This document shows, piece after piece, positions 3,121 through 39,158 of a stretch of DNA of 64,000 bases; the stretch's first letter is position 1, and each line of letters begins with the position of its first letter. Source of the stretch: Minisyncoccota bacterium (GTDB lineage: Bacteria > Patescibacteriota > Minisyncoccia > Phycocordibacterales > UBA2100). Location: positions 264,178-328,177 of the forward strand of contig JALHPE010000001.1 in NCBI GenBank assembly GCA_022842645.1, given 5' to 3'. The translations under genes and the position numbers were made by a program. The notes below the pieces were generated by a model. The model was not told the DNA's origin. It saw only the letters and a program-made list of their open reading frames with translations, and searched no databases.

Positions 3121-3160
3121 AAAATTAGGTTCTAGGTGTTAGGGGCTAGGTTTTAGGGAA
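3121..3160 (-). promoter_or_regulatory. conserved G-poor CCTAAAACC-TAGCCCCTAACACC leader motif (rpsL-rpsG intergenic)
   Basis: mRNA-sense TTCCCTAAAACCTAGCCCCTAACACCTAGAACCTAATTTT-ATG. The same about 30-nt motif recurs upstream of nusA and ppa. Confidence 0.5.
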
Positions 3161-3577
3161 TTACTTTGCTGCTTTTGGCTTCTTAGCTCCGTAGAGCGAG
3201 CGGCCGCGGCGGCGTTTTTCAATTCCAGCCGTATCAAGCTTACCGCGGACGATAGTGTAGCGAACGCCAATGTCCTTCACACGACCACCACGCACGAGAA
3301 CCACTGAGTGTTCCTGGAGATTGTGCCCCTCGCCCGGAATATACGCAGTAATTTCAACGCCGTTTGAAAGGCGCACACGAGCAATCTTACGAATAGCTGA
3401 GTTTGGCTTACGAGGGGTCTTTGTGGTGACACGAGTGCAGACGCCACGCTTGAATGGTGAATTGAAATAGGTGGGGCGATTTTCGAGTGTATTGAAACCA
3501 CGACCGAGCGCTCCGGTCTTGGATTTGTAGATGCGCTTACCGCGCCCCTTACGTACAAGCTGATTGATTGTTGACAT
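3161..3577 (-). CDS. rpsL: 30S ribosomal protein S12 (with short basic C-terminal extension)
   Basis: Canonical S12 sequence ([26 protein letters not shown]) plus about 14 extra basic C-terminal residues. Confidence 0.95.
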
Positions 3578-3762: not shown

Positions 3763-4392
3763 CTAAACCCCGGCAAGAAGTCGCGCTGCGCCATAGATAA
3801 TGCTCCCGAAGGCATTTCCGGCGACGAGAATAAAGAGAATGACGATTCCGAAACCAAGGAACGGATTGTTTTCAAGCTGCATGCGCCACACGTCGTACCC
3901 TCTTCGAAGCGCACCTGGCAGTAGTGCTGAAAGCACTTTTGAGCCGTCGAGGGGCGGAATGGGGAGAAGATTGAAAATACCGAGCATGACGTTGATCGCA
4001 AGGACGAGAAAGAGAATAGCGCTCATCTCTGCGGGGAACACCTCTGCACGAATAATGAGTGCCATTACGAGCGCGATTGCAAAGTTGGACGCTGGCCCCG
4101 CAAACGCCACAATTGCCTCACCCCACTTCCCGCCCGTCCTAAAATTAAAGGGGTTGTAGGGCACGGGCTTAGCCCACCCAAGGAGAAACGGAGAACCAGA
4201 AAGTCCAAGGAGTAATGGGAGAAAAATCGAGCCAAAAGGATCGATGTGCGGAACGGGGTTCAGAGTAAGTCTCCCCTGATAACGGGCTGTAGGGTCGCCA
4301 AGCTTATCCGCCGCAACGCCGTGCGCCACCTCGTGAATCACGGCGCTAAACATGACGATTGCGATCTGAAAGACGATAAAAATTGGATCCAT
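3763..4392 (-). CDS. site-2 protease family (peptidase M50) membrane protein
   Basis: HEVAHG zinc-binding motif, multiple TM segments, LLPIPPLDG motif. Confidence 0.8.
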   Translation of the reverse strand: MDPIFIVFQIAIVMFSAVIHEVAHGVAADKLGDPTARYQGRLTLNPVPHIDPFGSIFLPLLLGLSGSPFLLGWAKPVPYNPFNFRTGGKWGEAIVAFAGPASNFAIALVMALIIRAEVFPAEMSAILFLVLAINVMLGIFNLLPIPPLDGSKVLSALLPGALRRGYDVWRMQLENNPFLGFGIVILFILVAGNAFGSIIYGAARLLAGV

Positions 4393-6421: not shown

Positions 6422-6470
6422 TTAGTATTTATACGGCATACAAGATACTCGATACGGTATACTTATTGGC

Positions 6471-7067
6471 ATGCACACCTACACACCCCGCATATTTTCC
6501 ATTCCATCCCTCGATGGCATTTCTGAAAAATCCATTGTTGACCACATTGGTCTCTACGAAGGCTACGTCAAAAACTTCAACACCATTTCTCAAAAACTGA
6601 GCGAGTATGCCCGCGAAGACAGTGAGAAACATGCGCACGCGCTCTCCGAGCTCATTCGCCGTCGCTCTTTTGAATTTGACGGCATGCGCCTCCATGAACT
6701 TTATTTTGAACAATTTGAGGGTGGTGCTTCACAGCTTACAGACACAGACTCTCTCGCAGAAACACTCAAGCGTGAATATCAAGGCTATTTTGAACAGTAT
6801 TTCAAATCAATCGCACTCATGCGCGGTCCCGGTTGGGCACTCCTCTATTACGACCCTGTCGCAAAGGAACTTCTTGCCGGATTTGCGGGCGAACAACACC
6901 AAGGGCACTTTGCGACACTTCCCATTATTCTTGCACTCGATGTCTGGGAGCACGCGTTTCTTCTTGATCATGGAGCGCAGGGTAAGAAGGCCTACGTCGA
7001 TGCATTTTTCAAAAATCTCAATTGGGGTGTGATTGAGAAACGATTTTCCACAGTGGTGAATATTTGA
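6471..7067 (+). CDS. sodA: Fe/Mn superoxide dismutase
   Basis: Full-length Fe/Mn SOD similarity (HHxKHH-type N-term, DVWEHAFLLDHG C-terminal motif). Confidence 0.9.
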   Translation: MHTYTPRIFSIPSLDGISEKSIVDHIGLYEGYVKNFNTISQKLSEYAREDSEKHAHALSELIRRRSFEFDGMRLHELYFEQFEGGASQLTDTDSLAETLKREYQGYFEQYFKSIALMRGPGWALLYYDPVAKELLAGFAGEQHQGHFATLPIILALDVWEHAFLLDHGAQGKKAYVDAFFKNLNWGVIEKRFSTVVNI

Positions 7068-11593: not shown

Positions 11594-12213
11594 TATGCAT
11601 TCGCCGGAGCGTCAGAATGAGGAGTAGTGGAGAGTGCGCGGTATGTGTGTGCGATCGCAAGAAGAGAAACCGGAACAGAGATGAGAAGTCCGATACCAAG
11701 CGCGAGGACACCAAGAATATTGATACCGATGAGAGCAAGCATGAGCATGAAAAGCGCCCACTTGTGCCCTTTTGTGATGCGCGCGCTTTCTTTTAGCGCC
11801 TCAATAGGGCCCTTGCCCGTATCCACAACAAGATAGGTTGCAAAGAGGAATGTTAAGGCGACGATAATGCCTGGCACAATAAGGAGTACTAGGCCGATGA
11901 GAACCGCAATCGTGGTCATAATCTTTACCGCAAGATACGGAAGAAACGCCTTTGGATACCACAAATCGGCAATCTTAACCTGAGTCACATCATCATGTGC
12001 CTTAAGAATGAACGCAATAAGACCAAGTTCTATCAAAACATTTATCACAAGTGCCGCGAGCACGAGAATTATTGACCCATCTTCCCCAGGAAGTGCGTTC
12101 ACAATACTCGAAAGAATAAGAACGAGAAGAATGCTGCCCACCAGAAACAAGGGGCGCTTCAGAAACGTCTCCCACGCTGCTTTGATAGTCGGCACAACCA
12201 TGATGGTTTGCAT
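11593..12213 (-). CDS. hypothetical membrane protein
   Basis: Multiple TM helices. Start trimmed to internal Met (MQTIMVV); the upstream ORF extension is low-complexity. Confidence 0.5.
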   Translation of the reverse strand: MQTIMVVPTIKAAWETFLKRPLFLVGSILLVLILSSIVNALPGEDGSIILVLAALVINVLIELGLIAFILKAHDDVTQVKIADLWYPKAFLPYLAVKIMTTIAVLIGLVLLIVPGIIVALTFLFATYLVVDTGKGPIEALKESARITKGHKWALFMLMLALIGINILGVLALGIGLLISVPVSLLAIAHTYRALSTTPHSDAPANA

Positions 12214-12244
12214 GCAGGAAGTATACCAAAACCCACTATCCGAG

Positions 12245-19027: not shown

Positions 19028-19726
19028 TCATTTAGTCGCAAGTGTGGATAGCAACGTTTCCGCACGCGCAAGGTCTTCCGGTGCTTTTATCTCAATCCAC
19101 ATTGTTGCGCGAACGATATGAATTGGAATTGCATGTGCAAGTTTTAGCATCGTTTGCGGTAAGCCCAATTCACTTGAACCGACGGCCTTAGGAACAGGGA
19201 CGACGTCAAATATGCGCATGTCGAGTACATAGAGCCCCGTGTTTGCGAACCCTTTTTCACCCCCATGATCATCATTTTCAGCAATATCAGTAATGCGATC
19301 TTTTTGATCTACTACCACACGCCCGGTTCTAATACGGTCTTTCTCTTGCACCAAAACGGCCCAATTAGTAGTGTGTGTACACGTTGATATATCTGCTGAG
19401 GCGTAAATATTGTCCCCATTCATCACAAGAAAACGATCACGAAGGTGCGGTCGTGCAAGCCATAACGCTTGTGCAGTGCCTCCCGTTGGATTTTCTTGCA
19501 CAACATAAATAAGCTTCTTGCCGTTGTACGAATCTCCAAAGCGCTCAATGATTCTCTCTTTCAAGTAGCCAACAACAAGCACAATCTCGTGCACCTCCTC
19601 TGGAAGCGCATCAAATTTGTGCTCAAGAAGCGTCTTTCCGAATACAGAGAGCATCGGCTTCGGGAGCATGTGGGTCAGAAGTCCCATGCGAGTCCCCCTC
19701 CCCGCGGCTAAAATCACTGCTTGCAT
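19028..19726 (-). CDS. sugar-phosphate nucleotidyltransferase (NTP_transferase family)
   Basis: MQAVILAAGRGTRMG...LPKPMLSV G-rich motif. Start placed at Met34 because NTP-transferases begin at this motif. Confidence 0.8.
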   Translation of the reverse strand: MQAVILAAGRGTRMGLLTHMLPKPMLSVFGKTLLEHKFDALPEEVHEIVLVVGYLKERIIERFGDSYNGKKLIYVVQENPTGGTAQALWLARPHLRDRFLVMNGDNIYASADISTCTHTTNWAVLVQEKDRIRTGRVVVDQKDRITDIAENDDHGGEKGFANTGLYVLDMRIFDVVPVPKAVGSSELGLPQTMLKLAHAIPIHIVRATMWIEIKAPEDLARAETLLSTLATK

Positions 19727-19731
19727 AGATA

Positions 19732-19759
19732 GCTTGTAGAGTACAGCTTGTAGCTTGTA
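19732..19759 (-). repeat. TACAAGC heptamer repeats (2 tandem plus 1 after a degenerate unit) immediately upstream of the nucleotidyltransferase start
   Basis: mRNA-sense CACTACAAGCTACAAGCTGTACTCTACAAGCTATCT-ATG. Same heptamer family as in the pilin leaders. Confidence 0.6.
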
Positions 19760-19845
19760 GTGGGAAGCCCTGGTTGAATCTAAATTCGTGTACATAAAAA
19801 AGACCCGCCAGAGGTCCGAGAACATGGCGGGTCAGACGTGAAGTC

Positions 19846-20436
19846 TTAGATTTCTATCGCGGCCGTAAGACGGTGATGCGAATTAATGGGTTCAGTGTGG
19901 CAGTACCACCCACGATCCGGATCACGATGTTCATAGCCTAAACACAGTCCAAACTCCGATTTTGCACACCGCGTCCCCTCAAAACGAATTCTTAAGTAAC
20001 TAGTACCCCCACTATCCAGCTTCTTCCACGCCAAAGGAAGAGCCTGCTGATTTGCGAGGAGGACCGAAAGTGCATGCGCGCCAAGTGGAAGATATTTGCC
20101 ATCCCAATTGGCGATTTGGGCTTTATCCTTATCGAGGTGCAGAATCTTCACCTTGCTCAGATCCAGTTCAGTCAGGGAACGAGTACGGCAATCGTGCTCA
20201 ATATGCTCGACATCCATTGGATGTAATGTTTCCAAGCTAAAATCCTGCGGGACTGAAAGGATGCGCGTCCCCGGCTTGAACAGCACCTCTCGCATGAGCA
20301 TGCTGAGCTGTTGTGTGTTACGAGACCAGTATTCAATACTCTCTGACGGAAGATCTCGTGGGATGGCCGTAAGAAGACGGCCGCCGAAAGTAGCAAACTG
20401 ATCAACGGTCAGGGGTGTTCCACGTTTACGAAACAT
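19846..20436 (-). CDS. hypothetical protein
   Basis: ORF only. Start uncertain (track ORF begins at 20520). Confidence 0.4.
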   Translation of the reverse strand: MFRKRGTPLTVDQFATFGGRLLTAIPRDLPSESIEYWSRNTQQLSMLMREVLFKPGTRILSVPQDFSLETLHPMDVEHIEHDCRTRSLTELDLSKVKILHLDKDKAQIANWDGKYLPLGAHALSVLLANQQALPLAWKKLDSGGTSYLRIRFEGTRCAKSEFGLCLGYEHRDPDRGWYCHTEPINSHHRLTAAIEI

Positions 20437-20613
20437 GGGGTGTTCCTTTCTCAAAGATCGCTTCTCGGCACTATGCCGAAGAAGAAGCCCCATAGTGCAG
20501 TTGCCACAACGTTTCTGCAAGCTCGGGAATATCTAGCAGGCGTGAGCCAAGCTGTGGCCAATTTGGCGCCAAATGAGCCAGTCCTTGGCTCATGCCTGCT
20601 GGCGTGAGCCAAG

Positions 20614-24498: not shown

Positions 24499-26001
24499 CT
24501 ACTGTTCACGCCACAACACCAACTTATAATCCGGCGAAGCCGCAGGTGTAAACGGTGGTGGGTCGAACGCAAGCAAGCGATCATAGGTGTCGACGCGCGT
24601 GTTGTAGCCCGAACAGAATGAGCCGCTACAATTCCACTTCGTGCCCACGCGATTGTTTGAAACTACACTTCCGATCGTCGTAAGCGACGACTGTGTCACA
24701 AAGGAGTTATACGCAGACGGGACGCCGTTACTTCCTCCTTGTTGATATAAATTGCGCCCCAGGTAGCCATTCTGTGCAACGAAGACGCCGCGTATGGTCA
24801 TTACATCGGGCGAATTGAGTGGTATCAAAACCGAACGCTCAGCGACAGCCGTGAGCCCCGAAGCGCCCGAAGCAGAAGCGTAGGTAATGTTGTTCGAGAG
24901 AATAATGTCTGGTGAAAAACTTCCGGTGTCTGCCGCAACAATCGTCACTTTTCCGCCCACAACTCCCTCAATCCACACTTTCGCGCGTGCAAAAATTACT
25001 GGGCAATCTGACGGAATCGTGTAGCGTCCGTGATACGTCTGGTTGGAAATAATGTGGTAGTCCGTCACCCACGTACCGATGTTGTCGATACGTTGCGCAA
25101 AGACTCCCGTCGTTCCGGTGACGCGATAAATATCGACGGTGTTGTCGCCGCGAAGCACGATGCGGAATCCGCGCTGGTCGCTGCCGCCGACTGAAGAGAA
25201 CGTGCTTCCCTGTTGAACGCCGTCAACCCGCACCGTTGTTGTGTTGAGCATGATGCCGTCATTCGTCGCATACGTTTGAAGCGCAGGAAAATCGCTCGAG
25301 ATGCCGGCAAAATTAAATGACGCCGCGGGAAACTGCCAGAGCGCAGAGCCACTTCCCGCACCAAAAACGCCCGGGCGATTCTGCGTCGGAGAACATCCAA
25401 ACGATGATGTGCAACTCCATGTGGCAACCGAACTCGAGACAATAGAGTTATTCGTGCCATCCATGCGAATGCCGCCGTTCGAGTGATACGCACCCGTAAT
25501 ATTTCTGTCGGCCCCCGCCCACACGTTCGCATTAATGATATTGGAATATTCAGCGACCGAGGGGCGCATGTAACGTGCCTCCAGTGTACGACGAAAGACG
25601 GTATTCAAATCTGAAACACCTTCAGATACAAGATCCGCTGATTGCACAACACCACATGCAGTATTTAACGTCGCGCTCACTTGAGCGTCTCCCAGTGTTC
25701 CACCCTCGGGATCAACTACTTCATATGACGCGGGGGAAACGAGCCCCGTGCCGTCCACCATAATTTGAGGGTTGTGCGCGAGGAACCATCGATAAAATTC
25801 GAGTCCGCTTTCGGCGACATTCACCGCCTGCTCACGCGCATACAAAGCTCGCCCATAGCGCCCTTGCGTGAGCGTGTAACTTAAAATGGTGCCGAGGAGA
25901 AAGAGGAAGATACCCATGAAGGTGAGAACCAGGATCACGGTCACGCCCCGTTCTGCATGAGAGTTTGTAGTTTGTAGTTTGTAGTTTGTAGTTACATGCA
26001 T
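24499..26001 (-). CDS. large type IV pilin-like / pseudopilin protein (500 aa) with repeat-containing leader peptide
   Basis: Leader MHVTTNYKLQTTNSHAERG, then hydrophobic VTVILVLTFMGIFLFLLG typical of a prepilin N-terminal helix. Leader encoded by CTACAAA x4. Confidence 0.65.
   Translation of the reverse strand: MHVTTNYKLQTTNSHAERGVTVILVLTFMGIFLFLLGTILSYTLTQGRYGRALYAREQAVNVAESGLEFYRWFLAHNPQIMVDGTGLVSPASYEVVDPEGGTLGDAQVSATLNTACGVVQSADLVSEGVSDLNTVFRRTLEARYMRPSVAEYSNIINANVWAGADRNITGAYHSNGGIRMDGTNNSIVSSSVATWSCTSSFGCSPTQNRPGVFGAGSGSALWQFPAASFNFAGISSDFPALQTYATNDGIMLNTTTVRVDGVQQGSTFSSVGGSDQRGFRIVLRGDNTVDIYRVTGTTGVFAQRIDNIGTWVTDYHIISNQTYHGRYTIPSDCPVIFARAKVWIEGVVGGKVTIVAADTGSFSPDIILSNNITYASASGASGLTAVAERSVLIPLNSPDVMTIRGVFVAQNGYLGRNLYQQGGSNGVPSAYNSFVTQSSLTTIGSVVSNNRVGTKWNCSGSFCSGYNTRVDTYDRLLAFDPPPFTPAASPDYKLVLWREQ
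25964..25991 (-). repeat. heptanucleotide tandem repeat CTACAAA x4 (coding sense) inside pilin leader-peptide codons 4-13
   Basis: Plus strand TTTGTAG x4 at 25964-25991. 28 nt is not a multiple of 3, so a one-unit change shifts the frame. Confidence 0.85.
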
Positions 26002-26019: not shown

Positions 26020-26640
26020 CTACCTGAGGTTCCTAAGAGCAGCTGTGGATCTCAGAGTAAATTGATTCGGCATACGATTCGGATTGATGTTGACTATCAC
26101 CGTTGTTTCGACGAAACGCAGTTCAGTAATATCAGAAAGGTCGGTCATGAGGTTGCCATTCAAATCATAATACTTAAAGACATCTGTCGCTTGCTCGACG
26201 TTGCGTACATATTCTGAAAGCTGCGAGATCGTTTCTGGATTGGTATAAACCGGCGGATCGCCCGATGGATCGATGAGTCCGCGATAAAGTGCCCCACCTT
26301 GGATAAAAAATCGCAGTCGCTCGATGAAAGGATCGTCATCGATATCGGCGTAGAACGACATGGAACTCGTGGCAAGCGAAATGATGGGGTATGCGCCGTC
26401 AGAGGCATATGAGGCTTCACGAATTGTTTTCACCATGCCTTCAATACCACGCTGTGCTGATGTAATCGCTGCTGCCTGCTCAACCGTGTACGAGTTTGTG
26501 CGATAAAAATATTGCACCGACGTGGTGATCGCGAGCATGGCCGAGAGTGTGATCGCCACCCACACACTCGCCTCAATTAATGTCATGCCGCGGTTGGCAC
26601 AGTGTGTAGTGTGTAGTGTGTAGTGTGTAGTTTTATGCAT
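26020..26640 (-). CDS. type IV pilin-like protein with repeat-containing leader peptide
   Basis: Leader MHKTTHYTLHTTHCANRG followed by MTLIEASVWVAITLSAML (prepilin cleavage/methylation-type N-terminus). Alternative GTG start at 26667. Confidence 0.7.
   Translation of the reverse strand: MHKTTHYTLHTTHCANRGMTLIEASVWVAITLSAMLAITTSVQYFYRTNSYTVEQAAAITSAQRGIEGMVKTIREASYASDGAYPIISLATSSMSFYADIDDDPFIERLRFFIQGGALYRGLIDPSGDPPVYTNPETISQLSEYVRNVEQATDVFKYYDLNGNLMTDLSDITELRFVETTVIVNINPNRMPNQFTLRSTAALRNLR
26603..26630 (-). repeat. heptanucleotide tandem repeat CTACACA x4 (coding sense) inside pilin leader-peptide codons
   Basis: Plus strand TGTGTAG x4 at 26603-26630. Paralogous to the 25964-25991 repeat; both genes start ATGCAT..AA then heptamers. 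Confidence 0.85.
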
Positions 26641-26666
26641 AAAAGATTTTGAGCGCGCGAGTTTCA

Positions 26667-26687
26667 CTACAAACTACAGTCTACAGA
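26667..26687 (+). repeat. three CTACAxx heptamers in opposite orientation in the pseudopilin-pilin intergenic region (inverted relative to the leader repeats)
   Basis: Plus strand CTACAAA-CTACAGT-CTACAGA at 26667-26687. Forms an imperfect inverted repeat with 26603-26630 flanking the ATG at 26638-26640. Confidence 0.6.
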
Positions 26688-28438
26688 CTGTTGAGTATGA
26701 TTGATAACCTCGATGTTCCCGACACATTCACTTCAGTCGAATTAAATGTTTGATAGCCGCTTGCCGATGCTTCAATAGTGTATGCGTTTCCTCCACCAAC
26801 ACTTCCCGCACTGAGACTGCTCCAAAAAGCGTTGCCGCAGGTGTCGCTCGTACGCGTCACATCAAAGCCGCCGCGCGTAAGGCGCACCGATGCGTTCGGT
26901 ATTACTACCCCCGCACTTGTCTTCACATCAACAAGAAGAGAATTCGTCGTCTGCGGAGAAAGAATGATTCGCGTTGTCTGCGCCGAGTTCGGCGTGAGTG
27001 TTTCCGGCTGCGGTGCACATGCTGAAGAAATATCATATCCACTGGTGTCGGGCACGATCACCGTGTACGCGTCCCACTCAAGATTCTGAATGAGGAGAGA
27101 TCCGGATGCGCCACTCGAATGAGTCGAATCATACTTATAGATGAGCGCCCCGCCAGCGGTGGTGCCGATTGTTTTTGCACCGCGCAGTGTAAACGAAACA
27201 TTCGGAAGCGGATGCGGGCCAGAATCATACGAGAGTCTCCAAGCGTCCACTGACGGCGTCGTCGATGCATTCCCTGTTGTGAGACGCCCGCGCACGACGA
27301 GTCCGGGATAGGTTGACGTTGAAACACCACTCACATTAATCGGTGACATGGTGAACCCGCCACTGTTTCCCGGGAGCTGCGAATCAGAAACGAGCGTTGT
27401 GCCAGAGCTGTCATACAGTTGTATATAGAGAGCGGTGCCACTCGGCGTATTTGCATCCCACGAAAGTGTTTTCCACGCGACAAGCGTCGAGGTTGAAACG
27501 ACGTTTGAAAAGAATGTACCTTCAAAGGGGTATTCGCCCGCCGTCTCGGTGAGCGCCACAATGCCTCCTGCAATCGTGACGTTTGATGTCGATGCAGTTC
27601 CTGCACCACCTGAAAATGTTTCCGTTGTCGTTGCGGTTGTGACCGGCGTGTATGTTTCAATGCGCTTTTCTGAAACGCGATCAATCGCAAAGGTTCCCGC
27701 AGTCGTGGTATCGAGCGCGACGGCAAGATGCGCAGGGATAGGATTCGTATTCGTTGCGTTTGCGGCATAGGTACGCGCAGTGGAGTAACCAGTTTTCGTA
27801 ACAGTAATCTGATAGCCGGCTCCTGGAGGCACACCTAAAATAGTTGCCTTGCCGTTTTCGTCAGTGAAACGCGTGAGATCAATCGTGGGAACGAGCGTGG
27901 TATTCACGACTTCCACCTCTGCGTTTGAAACAGGAAGAAGTGCGGCGTCCACCACTTCAATTGCAAGAACACCGCCCGGCACCGAGGCTTCAATTCCCGG
28001 AGGAGAAACGCGTGTGAGGAGTTCAATAGTGTGCACACCATCGCGCCCATTCCACGAAACTTGCGACTTCACCGCTTTGTAATCCGTTTCAATGCCATTT
28101 TCATCTGCACCACCAAGTCCATCCGCCGGATCATCTTCGTAGGAAATAAAAGTTCGGCGCGTGTAGGGCACATCATTGAGTTCGATACTTTCAACTTGTG
28201 CGAGCGCACCCGCAGGAATGCCACCAGCAGTCCCGACCGCGTTATAAGAAAGTGAACGAATGAATTCGAGTCGCTCGTTTGCAAGTGCAATCGCTCCCGC
28301 CCGCGCCTTGTTATTCCCCACCGCCATCACAGTCAAACGAAATGCGCCGGCAATACCGACAAACACCACAAGCATGAGCGCAGTGCCCACCACCGCATCA
28401 AGTAGCGTCGAACCTCGTTCCCCGCGAGGAAACCACAT
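26681..28438 (-). CDS. large pseudopilin-like protein (about 586 aa)
   Basis: Short leader MWFPRGERG then STLLDAVVGTALMLVVFVGIAG hydrophobic helix. Start placed at Met19, which leaves the 28455-28482 terminator hairpin outside the gene. TACAAT 8 nt upstream of this ATG. Confidence 0.65.
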   Translation of the reverse strand: MWFPRGERGSTLLDAVVGTALMLVVFVGIAGAFRLTVMAVGNNKARAGAIALANERLEFIRSLSYNAVGTAGGIPAGALAQVESIELNDVPYTRRTFISYEDDPADGLGGADENGIETDYKAVKSQVSWNGRDGVHTIELLTRVSPPGIEASVPGGVLAIEVVDAALLPVSNAEVEVVNTTLVPTIDLTRFTDENGKATILGVPPGAGYQITVTKTGYSTARTYAANATNTNPIPAHLAVALDTTTAGTFAIDRVSEKRIETYTPVTTATTTETFSGGAGTASTSNVTIAGGIVALTETAGEYPFEGTFFSNVVSTSTLVAWKTLSWDANTPSGTALYIQLYDSSGTTLVSDSQLPGNSGGFTMSPINVSGVSTSTYPGLVVRGRLTTGNASTTPSVDAWRLSYDSGPHPLPNVSFTLRGAKTIGTTAGGALIYKYDSTHSSGASGSLLIQNLEWDAYTVIVPDTSGYDISSACAPQPETLTPNSAQTTRIILSPQTTNSLLVDVKTSAGVVIPNASVRLTRGGFDVTRTSDTCGNAFWSSLSAGSVGGGNAYTIEASASGYQTFNSTEVNVSGTSRLSIILNSL

Positions 28439-32574: not shown

Positions 32575-32736
32575 ATGCTCGTCGAGAAGTTTGCTGAGTC
32601 CTTCGTAATAGCAGTGTGCGCACACTTCGACGTCATCAACGCGATGATGTTCCCCATCGACACGAGGACCAAGTGGCGCACCACATGTACAGGTACGCGA
32701 TTCTGCGTCCACGCGAGACTCCTTTCACATACTTGA
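32575..32736 (+). CDS. possible small Cys/His-rich protein (53 aa)
   Basis: ORF MLVEKFAESFVIAVCAHFDV...CTGTRFCVHARL followed by terminator hairpin GTCCGGC-CGAAA-GCCGGAC plus TTTTTA at about 32792-32817. Weak call. Confidence 0.25.
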   Translation: MLVEKFAESFVIAVCAHFDVINAMMFPIDTRTKWRTTCTGTRFCVHARLLSHT

Positions 32737-32823
32737 CACAACGCCCCCCGCGAATATACTACCTCTATAGCTGAATACAGCAATGTAGTCAGTCCGGCCG
32801 AAAGCCGGACGTTTTTAATAAAT

Positions 32824-32861
32824 TACTAACACCTAAAACTTAGCCCCTAACACCTAATCCT
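32824..32861 (+). promoter_or_regulatory. conserved G-poor leader motif ACTAACACCTAAAACTTAGCCCCTAACACCTAATCCT before nusA ATG
   Basis: Shares CCTAAAAC and TAGCCCCTAACACCTA blocks with the rpsG and ppa upstream regions. No SD. Confidence 0.5.
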
Positions 32862-34432: not shown

Positions 34433-34484
34433 GTCGTGCAGATACATATTTGGACACACATAAAACAGTACGCTACACTCCCCG

Positions 34485-34519
34485 CATTACCTAACACCTA
34501 GCCCCTAAAACCTCATTGT
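34485..34519 (+). promoter_or_regulatory. conserved G-poor leader motif CATTACCTAACACCTAGCCCCTAAAACCTCATTGT before ppa ATG
   Basis: Third copy of the CCTAACACC / TAGCCCCTAAAACC motif family. Confidence 0.5.
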
Positions 34520-35933: not shown

Positions 35934-35979
35934 CGCCATCTATTTTCTAATATCTACCATCTAATATCTTCCCCTCCTT

Positions 35980-36366
35980 ATGGACCCCCTCACTCAAAAT
36001 CAAAACCCCATCACAACCGGTAGTCAGATGCCGCCGCAGATGCCAAGTTCAGAACCTGAGCGTTCTCCCATGGGCCCAGTTGCAGGCGCTGTGATTGTTA
36101 TCGTACTCCTCGTCGCAGGTGGCCTCTACTTCTATGGCGCAAAACTCAATCGAGAAACCATGATGAAAAACAACGCACCGTACATACCATCGGACACAAT
36201 GATGGAAGAAACATCGATAATGCCTACTGAAGCATCGATGGATACCATGGTCGGCCTTCCTTCACAAAGCAGTTCCGATGACGTCTCTTCCATTGAAGCA
36301 GATCTGAATGCAATGGATATGGGTGCAATCGAATCCTCAAACCAGGCTGAACTGAATAATCTCTAA
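35980..36366 (+). CDS. hypothetical membrane protein (128 aa)
   Basis: Pro/Ser-rich N-terminus, one TM helix (GAVIVIVLLVAGGLYFYG). Confidence 0.5.
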   Translation: MDPLTQNQNPITTGSQMPPQMPSSEPERSPMGPVAGAVIVIVLLVAGGLYFYGAKLNRETMMKNNAPYIPSDTMMEETSIMPTEASMDTMVGLPSQSSSDDVSSIEADLNAMDMGAIESSNQAELNNL

Positions 36367-38904: not shown

Positions 38905-39158
38905 TTGGACAGGTTACAGGTTTTAGGGTTTAGTTTTTAGAGGCTTTTGTTTTATGGCTTATATAAAGGTTATTCCCAGAACCTACCGCCCATTCCCTAC
39001 AACCTAGTGAGGTGCTATAGTGCATGTACACCTTACCATTTATGTCACTTTACACCGCGCACCTCTCTATCAAAGCGCACTCTAACCGTGTCTTTCTATC
39101 AATGAACTCTGTCACACGAATGCAGGCGTACTAGAGGCGCGTGGTTAAATCCACGCAT

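Follow-up and report, generated by a model that had tools for sequence, protein, structure and literature searches.

The repeat tract ahead of the nucleotidyltransferase gene

The analyzed stretch of 64,000 nucleotides (nt) of contig JALHPE010000001.1 from an uncultured Minisyncoccota bacterium (positions 264,178 to 328,177; hereafter the window) encodes, on the minus strand at 19028..19726, an NDP-sugar pyrophosphorylase of 232 amino acids (aa) that begins MQAVILAAGRGTRMG and is assigned to the NTP_transferase family (PF00483) by Pfam hits and 1,907 homologues. Directly in front of this coding sequence lies a solo tandem array of heptamers (19730..19760, minus strand), which is the subject of this analysis. 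In mRNA sense, from 19760 to 19730, the array reads CTACAAG CTACAAG CTGTACT CTACAAG CTATCT, with the final base at -1 relative to the ATG that follows directly, at 19726; the locus as a whole reads cccaCTACAAGCTACAAGCTGTACTCTACAAGCTATCT-ATG. The tract thus comprises a pair of adjacent perfect units and a third perfect one further on, together with one degenerate unit (CTGTACT) and one partial unit (CTATCT). A preliminary description, made from the letters alone, had placed TACAAGC heptamers immediately upstream of a sugar nucleotidyltransferase gene, and the minus-strand sequence confirms three such sites (19732-19738, 19746-19752 and 19753-19759). The 9-mer CTACAAGCT has three exact occurrences in the 64 kb, all within this array and in a 7-nt register. 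Tandem Repeats Finder assigns the tract a period of 7, with 4.4 copies and 66% matches; the score of 34 is weak owing to the degenerate unit and the incomplete final one. In the entire window, TACAAGC occurs 12 times compared to 6.1 expected, so that the heptamer count by itself is not significant.

The 1,907 database relatives of the nucleotidyltransferase are named as Patescibacteria, Paceibacterota or Kaiserbacteria proteins, the nearest one other than the protein itself being 64-66% identical; the nucleotidyltransferase of the approximately 92% identical sister strain (L217/L218) has no entry in the protein collection. Most of the inspected N-termini start with MQAVILAAGRG, and a few longer called N-termini reach the same motif. 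Because the N-termini of the homologues are conserved, with more than 100 of them fixing the position, the true start is the ATG at 19726, as had been proposed in the preliminary description, and the array is non-coding. The longer open reading frame (ORF) across the array translates as ...SHYKLQAVLYKLS-MQAVILAAGRGTRMG and does echo, as had also been pointed out, the leader of a pilin-like ORF (24499-26001) that begins MHVTTNYKLQTTN; judging by the homologues, the upstream extension HYKLQAVLYKLS is not protein. The gene-caller products on record have 265 aa (upstream start, translated through the array) and 219 aa (internal methionine), compared to 232 aa from the conserved start. Prodigal-type calls misplace the start here in both directions, which is a practical warning for gene callers. 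The comparison with homologues also identifies the nucleotidyltransferase as a conserved core gene.

An inverted-repeat search detects a terminator-like hairpin upstream of the array (19796..19833, minus strand), with a 9-bp GC-rich stem (19833-19825 / 19810-19802) followed by TTTTTT (gacccgcca...tggcgggtc-tttttt), located downstream of the preceding gene (19846-20520). The order in mRNA sense is hairpin with T-run, 35 nt, array, and ATG CAA GCA GTG ATT TTA GCC. No Shine-Dalgarno (SD) sequence (GGAG, GAGG or AGGA) is found within 18 nt of the ATG. The start region that includes the array contains 16% G, and its fold over 63 nt (-9.1 kcal/mol, z = +1.2 versus shuffles) indicates little structure. 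Identity with a hairpin element is ruled out for this array, which has no inverted partner within 200 nt and, over a 101-nt stretch around it, folds no better than shuffled sequences (z = +1.06). Searches against Rfam 15 reject a known RNA family as well: at the gathering threshold, the whole window yields four tRNAs and nothing else, and in a permissive search of 19600-19900 the best match has E = 0.5, with neither match covering the array. A HutP-type (UAG-N4)x3 site was considered and set aside on account of its register, which fits the antisense strand only; the sense units are UAC, UAA or UAG.

Start signals in the window and at the orthologous loci

A TAnnnT hexamer, often with TGn before it, is located 6-8 nt ahead of the ATG in 14 of the 31 likely starts of the window (e.g., those at 4392, 5998, 13921, 20853, 46350, 48102, 55344 and 63057), compared to 4.5% of all ATGs, which bears out an earlier remark on -10-type hexamers close to start codons in this DNA. 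A hexamer at this distance is the signature of leaderless mRNAs, and the genome appears to be largely leaderless; SD sequences are present at few genes of the window (21503, 28866). The array-bearing genes have neither an SD sequence nor a TAnnnT hexamer 5-8 nt upstream.

The orthologous loci of five relatives (L082, L086, L089, L091 and L092) contain no array. In each of these, the terminator is followed by TGnTAnnnT exactly six bases before the ATG, the -10 hexamers being TATAAT, TACAAT, TAGAAT, TACACT and TACAAT, respectively (in L092, two bases rather than one follow TG). The distance between the terminator and the ATG is some 50 bases longer in the window than in these orthologues. The window gene does not match an extended -10 leaderless promoter (TGnTAnnnT, 6-8 nt) but has cTC-TACAAG-ctatct-ATG, in which TACAAG (19733..19738, minus strand; -12..-7) occupies the extended -10 slot of the five orthologues, with G instead of T at -7 and without the upstream TG. 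The resemblance of TACAAG to a TACAAT-type -10 element, which had been noticed at the outset, thus extends to its position: the last TACAAG fills the exact slot that is taken by TACAAT in L086 and L092. The array would have either grown from the old -10 region or displaced it. In L086 (Kaiserbacteria), a MazE/PemK toxin-antitoxin pair (11634-12214) adjoins the orthologous nucleotidyltransferase gene, which is a possible lead to a UAH-specific RNase.

The positional match raises the possibility that the array itself is the promoter, with a -10-like hexamer, either TACAAG at -12..-7 or TACTCT at -17..-12, driving a leaderless or very short-leader transcript, and the repeat representing a tandem duplication of the -10 region. 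Apart from the shared slot, this possibility is compatible with the dominance in this genome of -10 boxes 6-8 nt before the ATG, and with the terminator-like hairpin upstream, which suggests that the gene needs a promoter of its own. Furthermore, a period-7 array of ATACnnn units (6425..6460, plus strand; TATACGG CATACAA GATACTC GATACGG TATACTT) ends in a unit that is itself the canonical -10 box (TATACT) of the gene at 6471, 7 nt from its ATG, which points to tandem duplication of -10 regions as the source of some arrays, and in L153 the units of AT-rich arrays are themselves TAnnnT. However, TACAAG lacks both the final T, which is nearly invariant in the -10 element of sigma-70 promoters, and the TG that is present in all five orthologues; with seven possible registers, a positional match of this kind is expected by chance in about one case in seven. 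TACTCT (19738..19743, minus strand), which derives from the degenerate unit and is, as read from the sequence, the only TAnnnT hexamer within the array, is a candidate -10 element for a short-leader transcript, but its distance from the ATG is 11 nt, compared to 6-8 nt in the 14 other genes, and it was not picked up in a consensus promoter scan. The same scan detects no -35/-10 promoter between the hairpin and the ATG of the nucleotidyltransferase, so that a canonical promoter in this interval is rejected, and no -35/-10 pair that would bracket the repeat. In addition, the arrays of ppa and nusA (see below) have separate canonical promoters upstream. A promoter within the array, the main alternative to the reading preferred below, is possible but unlikely. 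The proposal in the preliminary description that the number of units tunes promoter spacing is left neither supported nor contradicted, given that no -35/-10 pair brackets the repeat and TACAAG lacks the final T.

Period-7 arrays as possible leaders and their spread among relatives

The tract belongs to a class of period-7 arrays that is abundant in the window. Three CTA trinucleotides at 7-nt spacing are found 12 times compared to 0.04 expected from trinucleotide frequency, and in-phase CTA chains of at least three members number 10, whereas simulated sequence contains 0.38 of them on average and never more than 2; the in-register clustering of CTA is significant. A self-similarity scan of the window at lags not divisible by 3 detects enrichment of lags 7 and 14 only (5 regions for lag 7 and 0-1 for the others). 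The arrays fall into subfamilies with units CTACAAG, CTACAAA, CTACACA, CCTARnn and ATCTAnn, and 8 of the 10 lie in the sense direction. In agreement with the preliminary description, the heptamer of the nucleotidyltransferase falls into one class with the pilin-gene arrays (4.6 copies of CTACAAA and 4.4 copies of CTACACA), but the repeat family is genome-wide and includes housekeeping genes: among the 10 arrays in 64 kb are those of rpsG, nusA and ppa, which are functionally unrelated genes, rpsG being part of a ribosomal-protein operon. Sense arrays that end 1-20 nt before an ATG are found in the rpsL-rpsG spacer and in front of the nucleotidyltransferase, nusA, ppa and the gene starting at 35980.

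The rpsG array (3126..3156, minus strand; CTAAAAC CTAGCCC CTAACAC CTAGAAC CTAATTTT-ATG) fills the 40-nt spacer between rpsL and rpsG, a universally co-transcribed gene pair, without an SD sequence. The nusA array (32826..32856, plus strand) is part of a 5' leader in which TTGACA-16-TATACT (32733-32760; 11 of 12 matches to the sigma-70 consensus) is followed by a GC-rich hairpin with a T-run (32792-32816), the array and the start codon; this hairpin resembles an attenuator and may serve in NusA autoregulation. The ppa array (34491..34514, plus strand) makes up essentially the entire predicted 5' untranslated region (UTR), with transcription predicted to start about four bases before it from the promoter TGGACA-17-TACACT (34451-34479; 9 of 12 matches). 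An array of ATCTAnn units (35938..35969, plus strand) is located in the 46-nt intercistronic spacer ahead of the gene starting at 35980. Given the upstream promoters of nusA and ppa and the co-transcribed spacer of rpsG, the arrays of these three genes are transcribed, either in a leader or between two cistrons, and lack an SD sequence; these arrays and the one in the 46-nt spacer lie in regions that must be transcribed. The three arrays share units (CTAACAC, CTAGCCC and CTAAAAC) in differing order, and those of rpsG and nusA have a 16-nt identical stretch (TAGCCCCTAACACCTA). The register relative to the start codon is the same in each of the three arrays, with the C of a unit at -8, and every reading frame is closed by TAA or TAG shortly ahead of that codon.

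In 63-nt folds, four of the five array leaders, with 2-7% G, reach no more than -1.2 to -2.6 kcal/mol; the window has its median for such folds at -12.9 and its 99th percentile at -2.5 kcal/mol, and these four are at or above the 99th percentile. Unstructured CA-rich or G-poor leaders are known to support SD-independent initiation. The nucleotidyltransferase array is likewise G-poor and has no SD sequence, and its folding is weak as far as the AUG; however, such leaders do not need a strict 7-nt periodicity, which is left unexplained by this role.

By analogy with the rpsG, nusA and ppa arrays, the reading that we prefer, with somewhat less than even confidence, is that the tract is a solo copy of a lineage-typical class of heptanucleotide repeats that serves as a short leader with little structure and no SD sequence, and at most tunes expression. 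Under this scenario, the 7-nt arrays, with a conserved CTA and four variable bases, would arise most plausibly by slipped-strand duplication, for which these genomes would have a strong 7-nt bias, and Paceibacteria (Kaiserbacteria-like) genomes would accumulate them wherever a 7-nt unit, not being divisible by three, is harmless, i.e. in leaders between genes, in prepilin leaders that are cleaved off, and in rRNA insertions. At the locus in question, the array would have displaced or overwritten the ancestral extended -10 element; the position of that element in the relatives, 6 nt ahead of the ATG, implies that the mRNA there is leaderless. The nucleotidyltransferase would then most likely be expressed from a transcript that contains the array as a 5' leader without an SD sequence. 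Polymerase passing through the upstream hairpin, or a weak start located ahead of the array, would supply this transcript, and translation would proceed by SD-independent initiation at an accessible AUG. The copy number may tune expression over evolutionary time but would not constitute a fast reversible switch. A mutational origin with at most a modulatory role is suggested by the fact that arrays come and go at orthologous sites and differ in their units.

Several observations weigh against this scenario. There is no consensus promoter between the terminator-like hairpin and the array, so that transcription of the array requires terminator read-through. With 16% G, the array is less extreme in composition and structure than the CCTA-type leaders. 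In a crude survey of 50 arrays from related loci, 30% abut the start of an ATG-initiated ORF compared to about 17% of random positions, there is no strand preference (9 versus 9), and about half of the arrays are inverted pairs that form hairpins; a general rule that arrays are G-poor sense leaders is not upheld by this survey, and the term leader fits the solo CTA arrays of the window rather than the whole class. Finally, neither the conservation of CTA with variable spacers nor the units common to the rpsG, nusA and ppa arrays are explained by slippage combined with neutral decay.

Comparison with other genomes shows turnover of the arrays over longer times. In the L10-L12 spacer, an array is present ahead of L7/L12 in two of five relatives, with the unrelated units AATTGAA and ACTACGT. 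Lag 7 is enriched in the five orthologous loci (11 compared to 1-3 for other lags) and, as indicated by an S7-based scan of GTDB genomes, among which this species was not represented (best S7 identity 69%), in S7 loci of the candidate phyla radiation (CPR; 12 versus 0-5), but not in 337 kb of non-CPR S7 loci (10 versus 5-10). The densest case seen is a 6.4-kb region around rpsG and fusA in Candidatus Yanofskybacteria (L020, MGKI01000002.1, 1561-6270), with nine period-7 arrays, several of which are adjacent inverted pairs. CCTAR arrays similar to the rpsG/nusA/ppa type are found in the same contig (3472-3550) and in L086. A metagenome scan for three CTA​CA[AC][AG] units retrieves, among the matches listed, a taxonomically mixed set that includes long microsatellite-like tracts. 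In the same set, at least about nine sense arrays, compared to at least about two convincing antisense ones, abut gene starts; arrays directly before the ATG are associated with rsmH-like, ssb-like, hscA/dnaK-like, mraY-like and pilC-like genes (names assigned from N-terminal sequences), and one array, in L142, is read in frame as the leader of a prepilin.

The 23S rRNA genes of four relatives contain insertions that are long hairpins of inverted heptamer arrays (L086 13185-13290, L089 11425-11530, L091 11960-12040 and L082 15925-16010). The loops are palindromic (ATGCAAATGCAT, AATGCATTTGCAT and GCGCATGCGC), with ATGCA-type loops in the L089 and L091 elements. The L086 insertion consists of GCTACAA/GCTACAAG units (-56.7 kcal/mol, z = -8.2), and GCTACAAG is also the unit of the nucleotidyltransferase array. 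Paired (inverted-array) elements of this clade fold at z = -4.6 to -8.2. The 23S genes with heptamer insertions also hold group I introns with LAGLIDADG ORFs. In the window, inverted-partner arrays are located at 26667-26689 and 38918-38940; the latter, in TAG orientation, forms a pair with an array in CTA orientation at 38983-39006 (38906..39006, plus strand), downstream of a ClpP-like gene.

These data bear on the possibility that the tract is a neutral relic, i.e., a slippage product or one half of a decayed hairpin element, tolerated through permissive initiation, with expression independent of the array. The gain and loss of arrays between close relatives, with unrelated units at the same site, is compatible with this possibility, as are the absence of the array from the five orthologues, the presence of the same heptamer in unrelated contexts, including 23S rRNA insertions and many metagenomic taxa, and the weak enrichment near starts without strand bias in the broad survey. 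However, this array stands immediately before the ATG of a conserved gene, in place of its only recognizable expression signal, so that it cannot lack all effect, and neither the sense orientation of 8 of the 10 CTA arrays in the window nor the equal register of the rpsG, nusA and ppa arrays (C at -8) would follow from neutrality. We regard a neutral relic as unlikely, slightly more so than a promoter within the array.

At the opposite extreme, the CTA-N4 heptad arrays might constitute a dedicated cis-element system of Paceibacteria, the register of which is read by a factor with a 7-nt footprint. Some room for a sequence-specific reader is left by the fact that CTA is retained while four bases vary in the CCTA-type arrays, that the rpsG, nusA and ppa arrays share units and register, and that the arms of hairpins co-vary. 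Candidate readers include an OB-fold protein of the Csp or S1 type and a UAH-specific endoribonuclease of the MazF/PemK type, which would either bring ribosomes to those internal or leadered AUGs that lack an SD sequence or process polycistronic RNA into leaderless mRNAs; ribosomes could prefer 5'-terminal AUGs, and the process that generates the repeats could also build the prepilin leaders and 23S hairpins. Such a system appears improbable.

The closest described system is that of the TAACTGA heptamer direct repeats, which are intergenic in marine Beggiatoaceae, some cyanobacteria and Bacteroidetes (MacGregor 2015, PMC4679880). For those repeats, a mutational origin with at most a modulatory role was inferred, and a translational role was proposed (PMC4679880). 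Both kinds of arrays consist of 2-6 tandem heptamers in forward orientation, located a few nt upstream of start codons, where they overlap the SD position, usually without an SD sequence; in both cases, many sets per genome are found in ribosomal-protein operons as well as before unrelated genes. The nucleotidyltransferase array shares the forward heptamers that end near the start (at -1) and the lack of an SD sequence, but its unit is not TAACTGA: the units here are CTACAAG and other CTA-N4 variants. Unlike the TAACTGA repeats, those described here occur in a Patescibacteria lineage that mostly uses leaderless mRNAs and also take the form of inverted-pair hairpins, prepilin leaders and 23S rRNA insertions. 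Thus, the array is of the same kind as the TAACTGA repeats but not of the same family. Another 7-nt class of simple repeats is represented by the cyanobacterial short tandemly repeated repetitive (STRR) sequences. Long prokaryotic simple sequence repeats and STRR resemble the present arrays in the 7-nt preference, the mostly non-coding location and the sporadic distribution among lineages, but are usually longer and homogeneous, whereas the arrays here have 3-5 units and those of the CCTA type vary while keeping CTA. Heptanucleotides have been described as the commonest 5-11-nt class of prokaryotic simple repeats, with polymerase slippage proposed (Mrazek et al. 2007, as summarised in PMC4679880). 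A literature search found no paper on heptamer arrays in Patescibacteria.

At the nucleotidyltransferase locus itself, little is at stake: a conserved housekeeping-type gene has its canonical leaderless promoter replaced by a short repeat. The wider pattern is that of a mostly leaderless CPR lineage with abundant 7-nt arrays where SD sequences or -10 boxes would be. If the arrays affect initiation, they offer a handle on the translation of those Patescibacteria genes that have neither an SD sequence nor a leaderless promoter; if they are neutral, they represent a clean example of a lineage-specific slippage bias that shapes UTRs, signal peptides and rRNA insertions.

Copy number and the pilin-gene arrays

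The preliminary description had further likened the sharing of one repeat family to co-varying contingency loci for pili and surface glycosylation. In its explicit form, this is the possibility that gain and loss of 7-nt units switches or grades the sugar enzyme together with the pilin genes. The precedent is that of hmw1A and hmw2A of Haemophilus influenzae, where promoter-proximal 7-bp repeats upstream of the genes reportedly control phase or graded variation. The hmw repeats and the array analyzed here are alike in that 7-bp tandem units lie between upstream signals and the start codon, but the hmw tracts are long, perfect and demonstrably polymorphic, whereas the nucleotidyltransferase tract is interrupted, with two adjacent perfect CTACAAG units (Tandem Repeats Finder 66%, score 34), and is invariant in assemblies, so that it is not a long uninterrupted slippage-prone tract. 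Nor is it placed to shift a reading frame or the -35/-10 spacing, being located upstream of the true start, outside the ORF and without a flanking -35/-10 pair.

The array is identical to that of the window in L081, L213 and L214, contigs from three other sequencing runs, and the exact 265-aa read-through ORF is found on 11 contigs; in every assembly found, i.e., on at least 13 contigs, the array is unchanged. Over 9-20 kb that include arrays, the near-clonal contigs of three relatives are separated by 0-4 substitutions, without any indel, and no copy-number polymorphism is seen in any assembly compared. These comparisons involve consensus assemblies, and the runs SRR28154515-SRR28154530 look like one study, so that minority variants are possible. 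Nothing indicates a hypermutable tract at the nucleotidyltransferase.

At 25962..25993 (minus strand), 4.6 copies of CTACAAA directly follow the ATGCAT of a PilX-like pilin ORF (pilin-1) and encode an in-frame prepilin leader (MHVTTNYKLQTTNSHAERG/VTVIL). The start of a second pilin ORF (pilin-2), again ATGCAT, is surrounded by 4.4 copies of CTACACA (26631-26601) and an inverted partner (26667-26689, plus strand), the whole element spanning 26601..26689 on the minus strand. The resulting hairpin, with CTGTAG-type and CTACACA x4.4 arms (26585-26705), folds at -32.4 kcal/mol (z = -4.65) and has the ATGCAT start in its loop. In the sister strain L217 (pilin-1 about 92% identical), the roughly 100-nt pilin-2 element is absent, the genes overlap by ATGA and the leader is MNHG (compare 3480-3520), so that the element behaves like an insertion that supplies a new start codon and a leader peptide. 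Comparison of pilin-1 (window 25950-26001) with L217 4060-4180 and proteins P0121-P0124 reveals CTACGAA in all units of the relatives (leader MHSTTNYELRTTFSSERG), compared to CTACAAA in the window (leader MHVTTNYKLQTTNSHAERG). In the CTACGAA relative (L217 4060-4180), the inverted arm is changed to match, the complementary left arm is longer and the fold reaches -36.3 kcal/mol (z = -4.7); the pilin leader of a third relative is unrelated (MTRPSIPPSLHFSSSSERG). The comparison shows concerted evolution of the pilin-1 array. Given that the pilin arrays are in frame in all relatives compared, they are translated as prepilin leaders.

Both the concerted unit changes and the perfection of the pilin arrays (4.4-4.6 copies encoding in-frame leader peptides, where a change by one unit would shift the frame) are compatible with contingency behavior. 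The sole hint of copy-number heterogeneity also comes from pilin-1: contigs L215 and L216, which stem from two runs (SRR28154530 and SRR28154519), both break off at an identical position, following the fourth CTACAAA unit. A tract of this length would not contain any 31-mer twice, so that the assembly may have branched at a longer allele present alongside, and a shared end of this kind is what such an allele would produce. However, the 206-aa pilin-2 product, including the CTACACA-encoded leader, is identical on four contigs, and the nucleotidyltransferase array, the near-clonal relatives and the placement of the repeat argue in the same direction, as detailed above. Arrays of the same class precede rpsG, nusA, ppa and an unnamed gene in the window and, elsewhere, L7/L12, ssb, rsmH, hscA-like and pilC genes, and are found inside 23S rRNA; moreover, the nucleotidyltransferase is a conserved core gene with more than 1,900 homologues, and the five relatives compared lack the array. 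A joint contingency locus for pili and glycosylation is thus very improbable. In the sister strain, a protein of the 23S_rRNA_IVP/bAvd family (L217 76-444) adjoins the pilus genes, which is a possible lead to the biology of diversity-generating retroelements (DGR) or intervening sequences (IVS).

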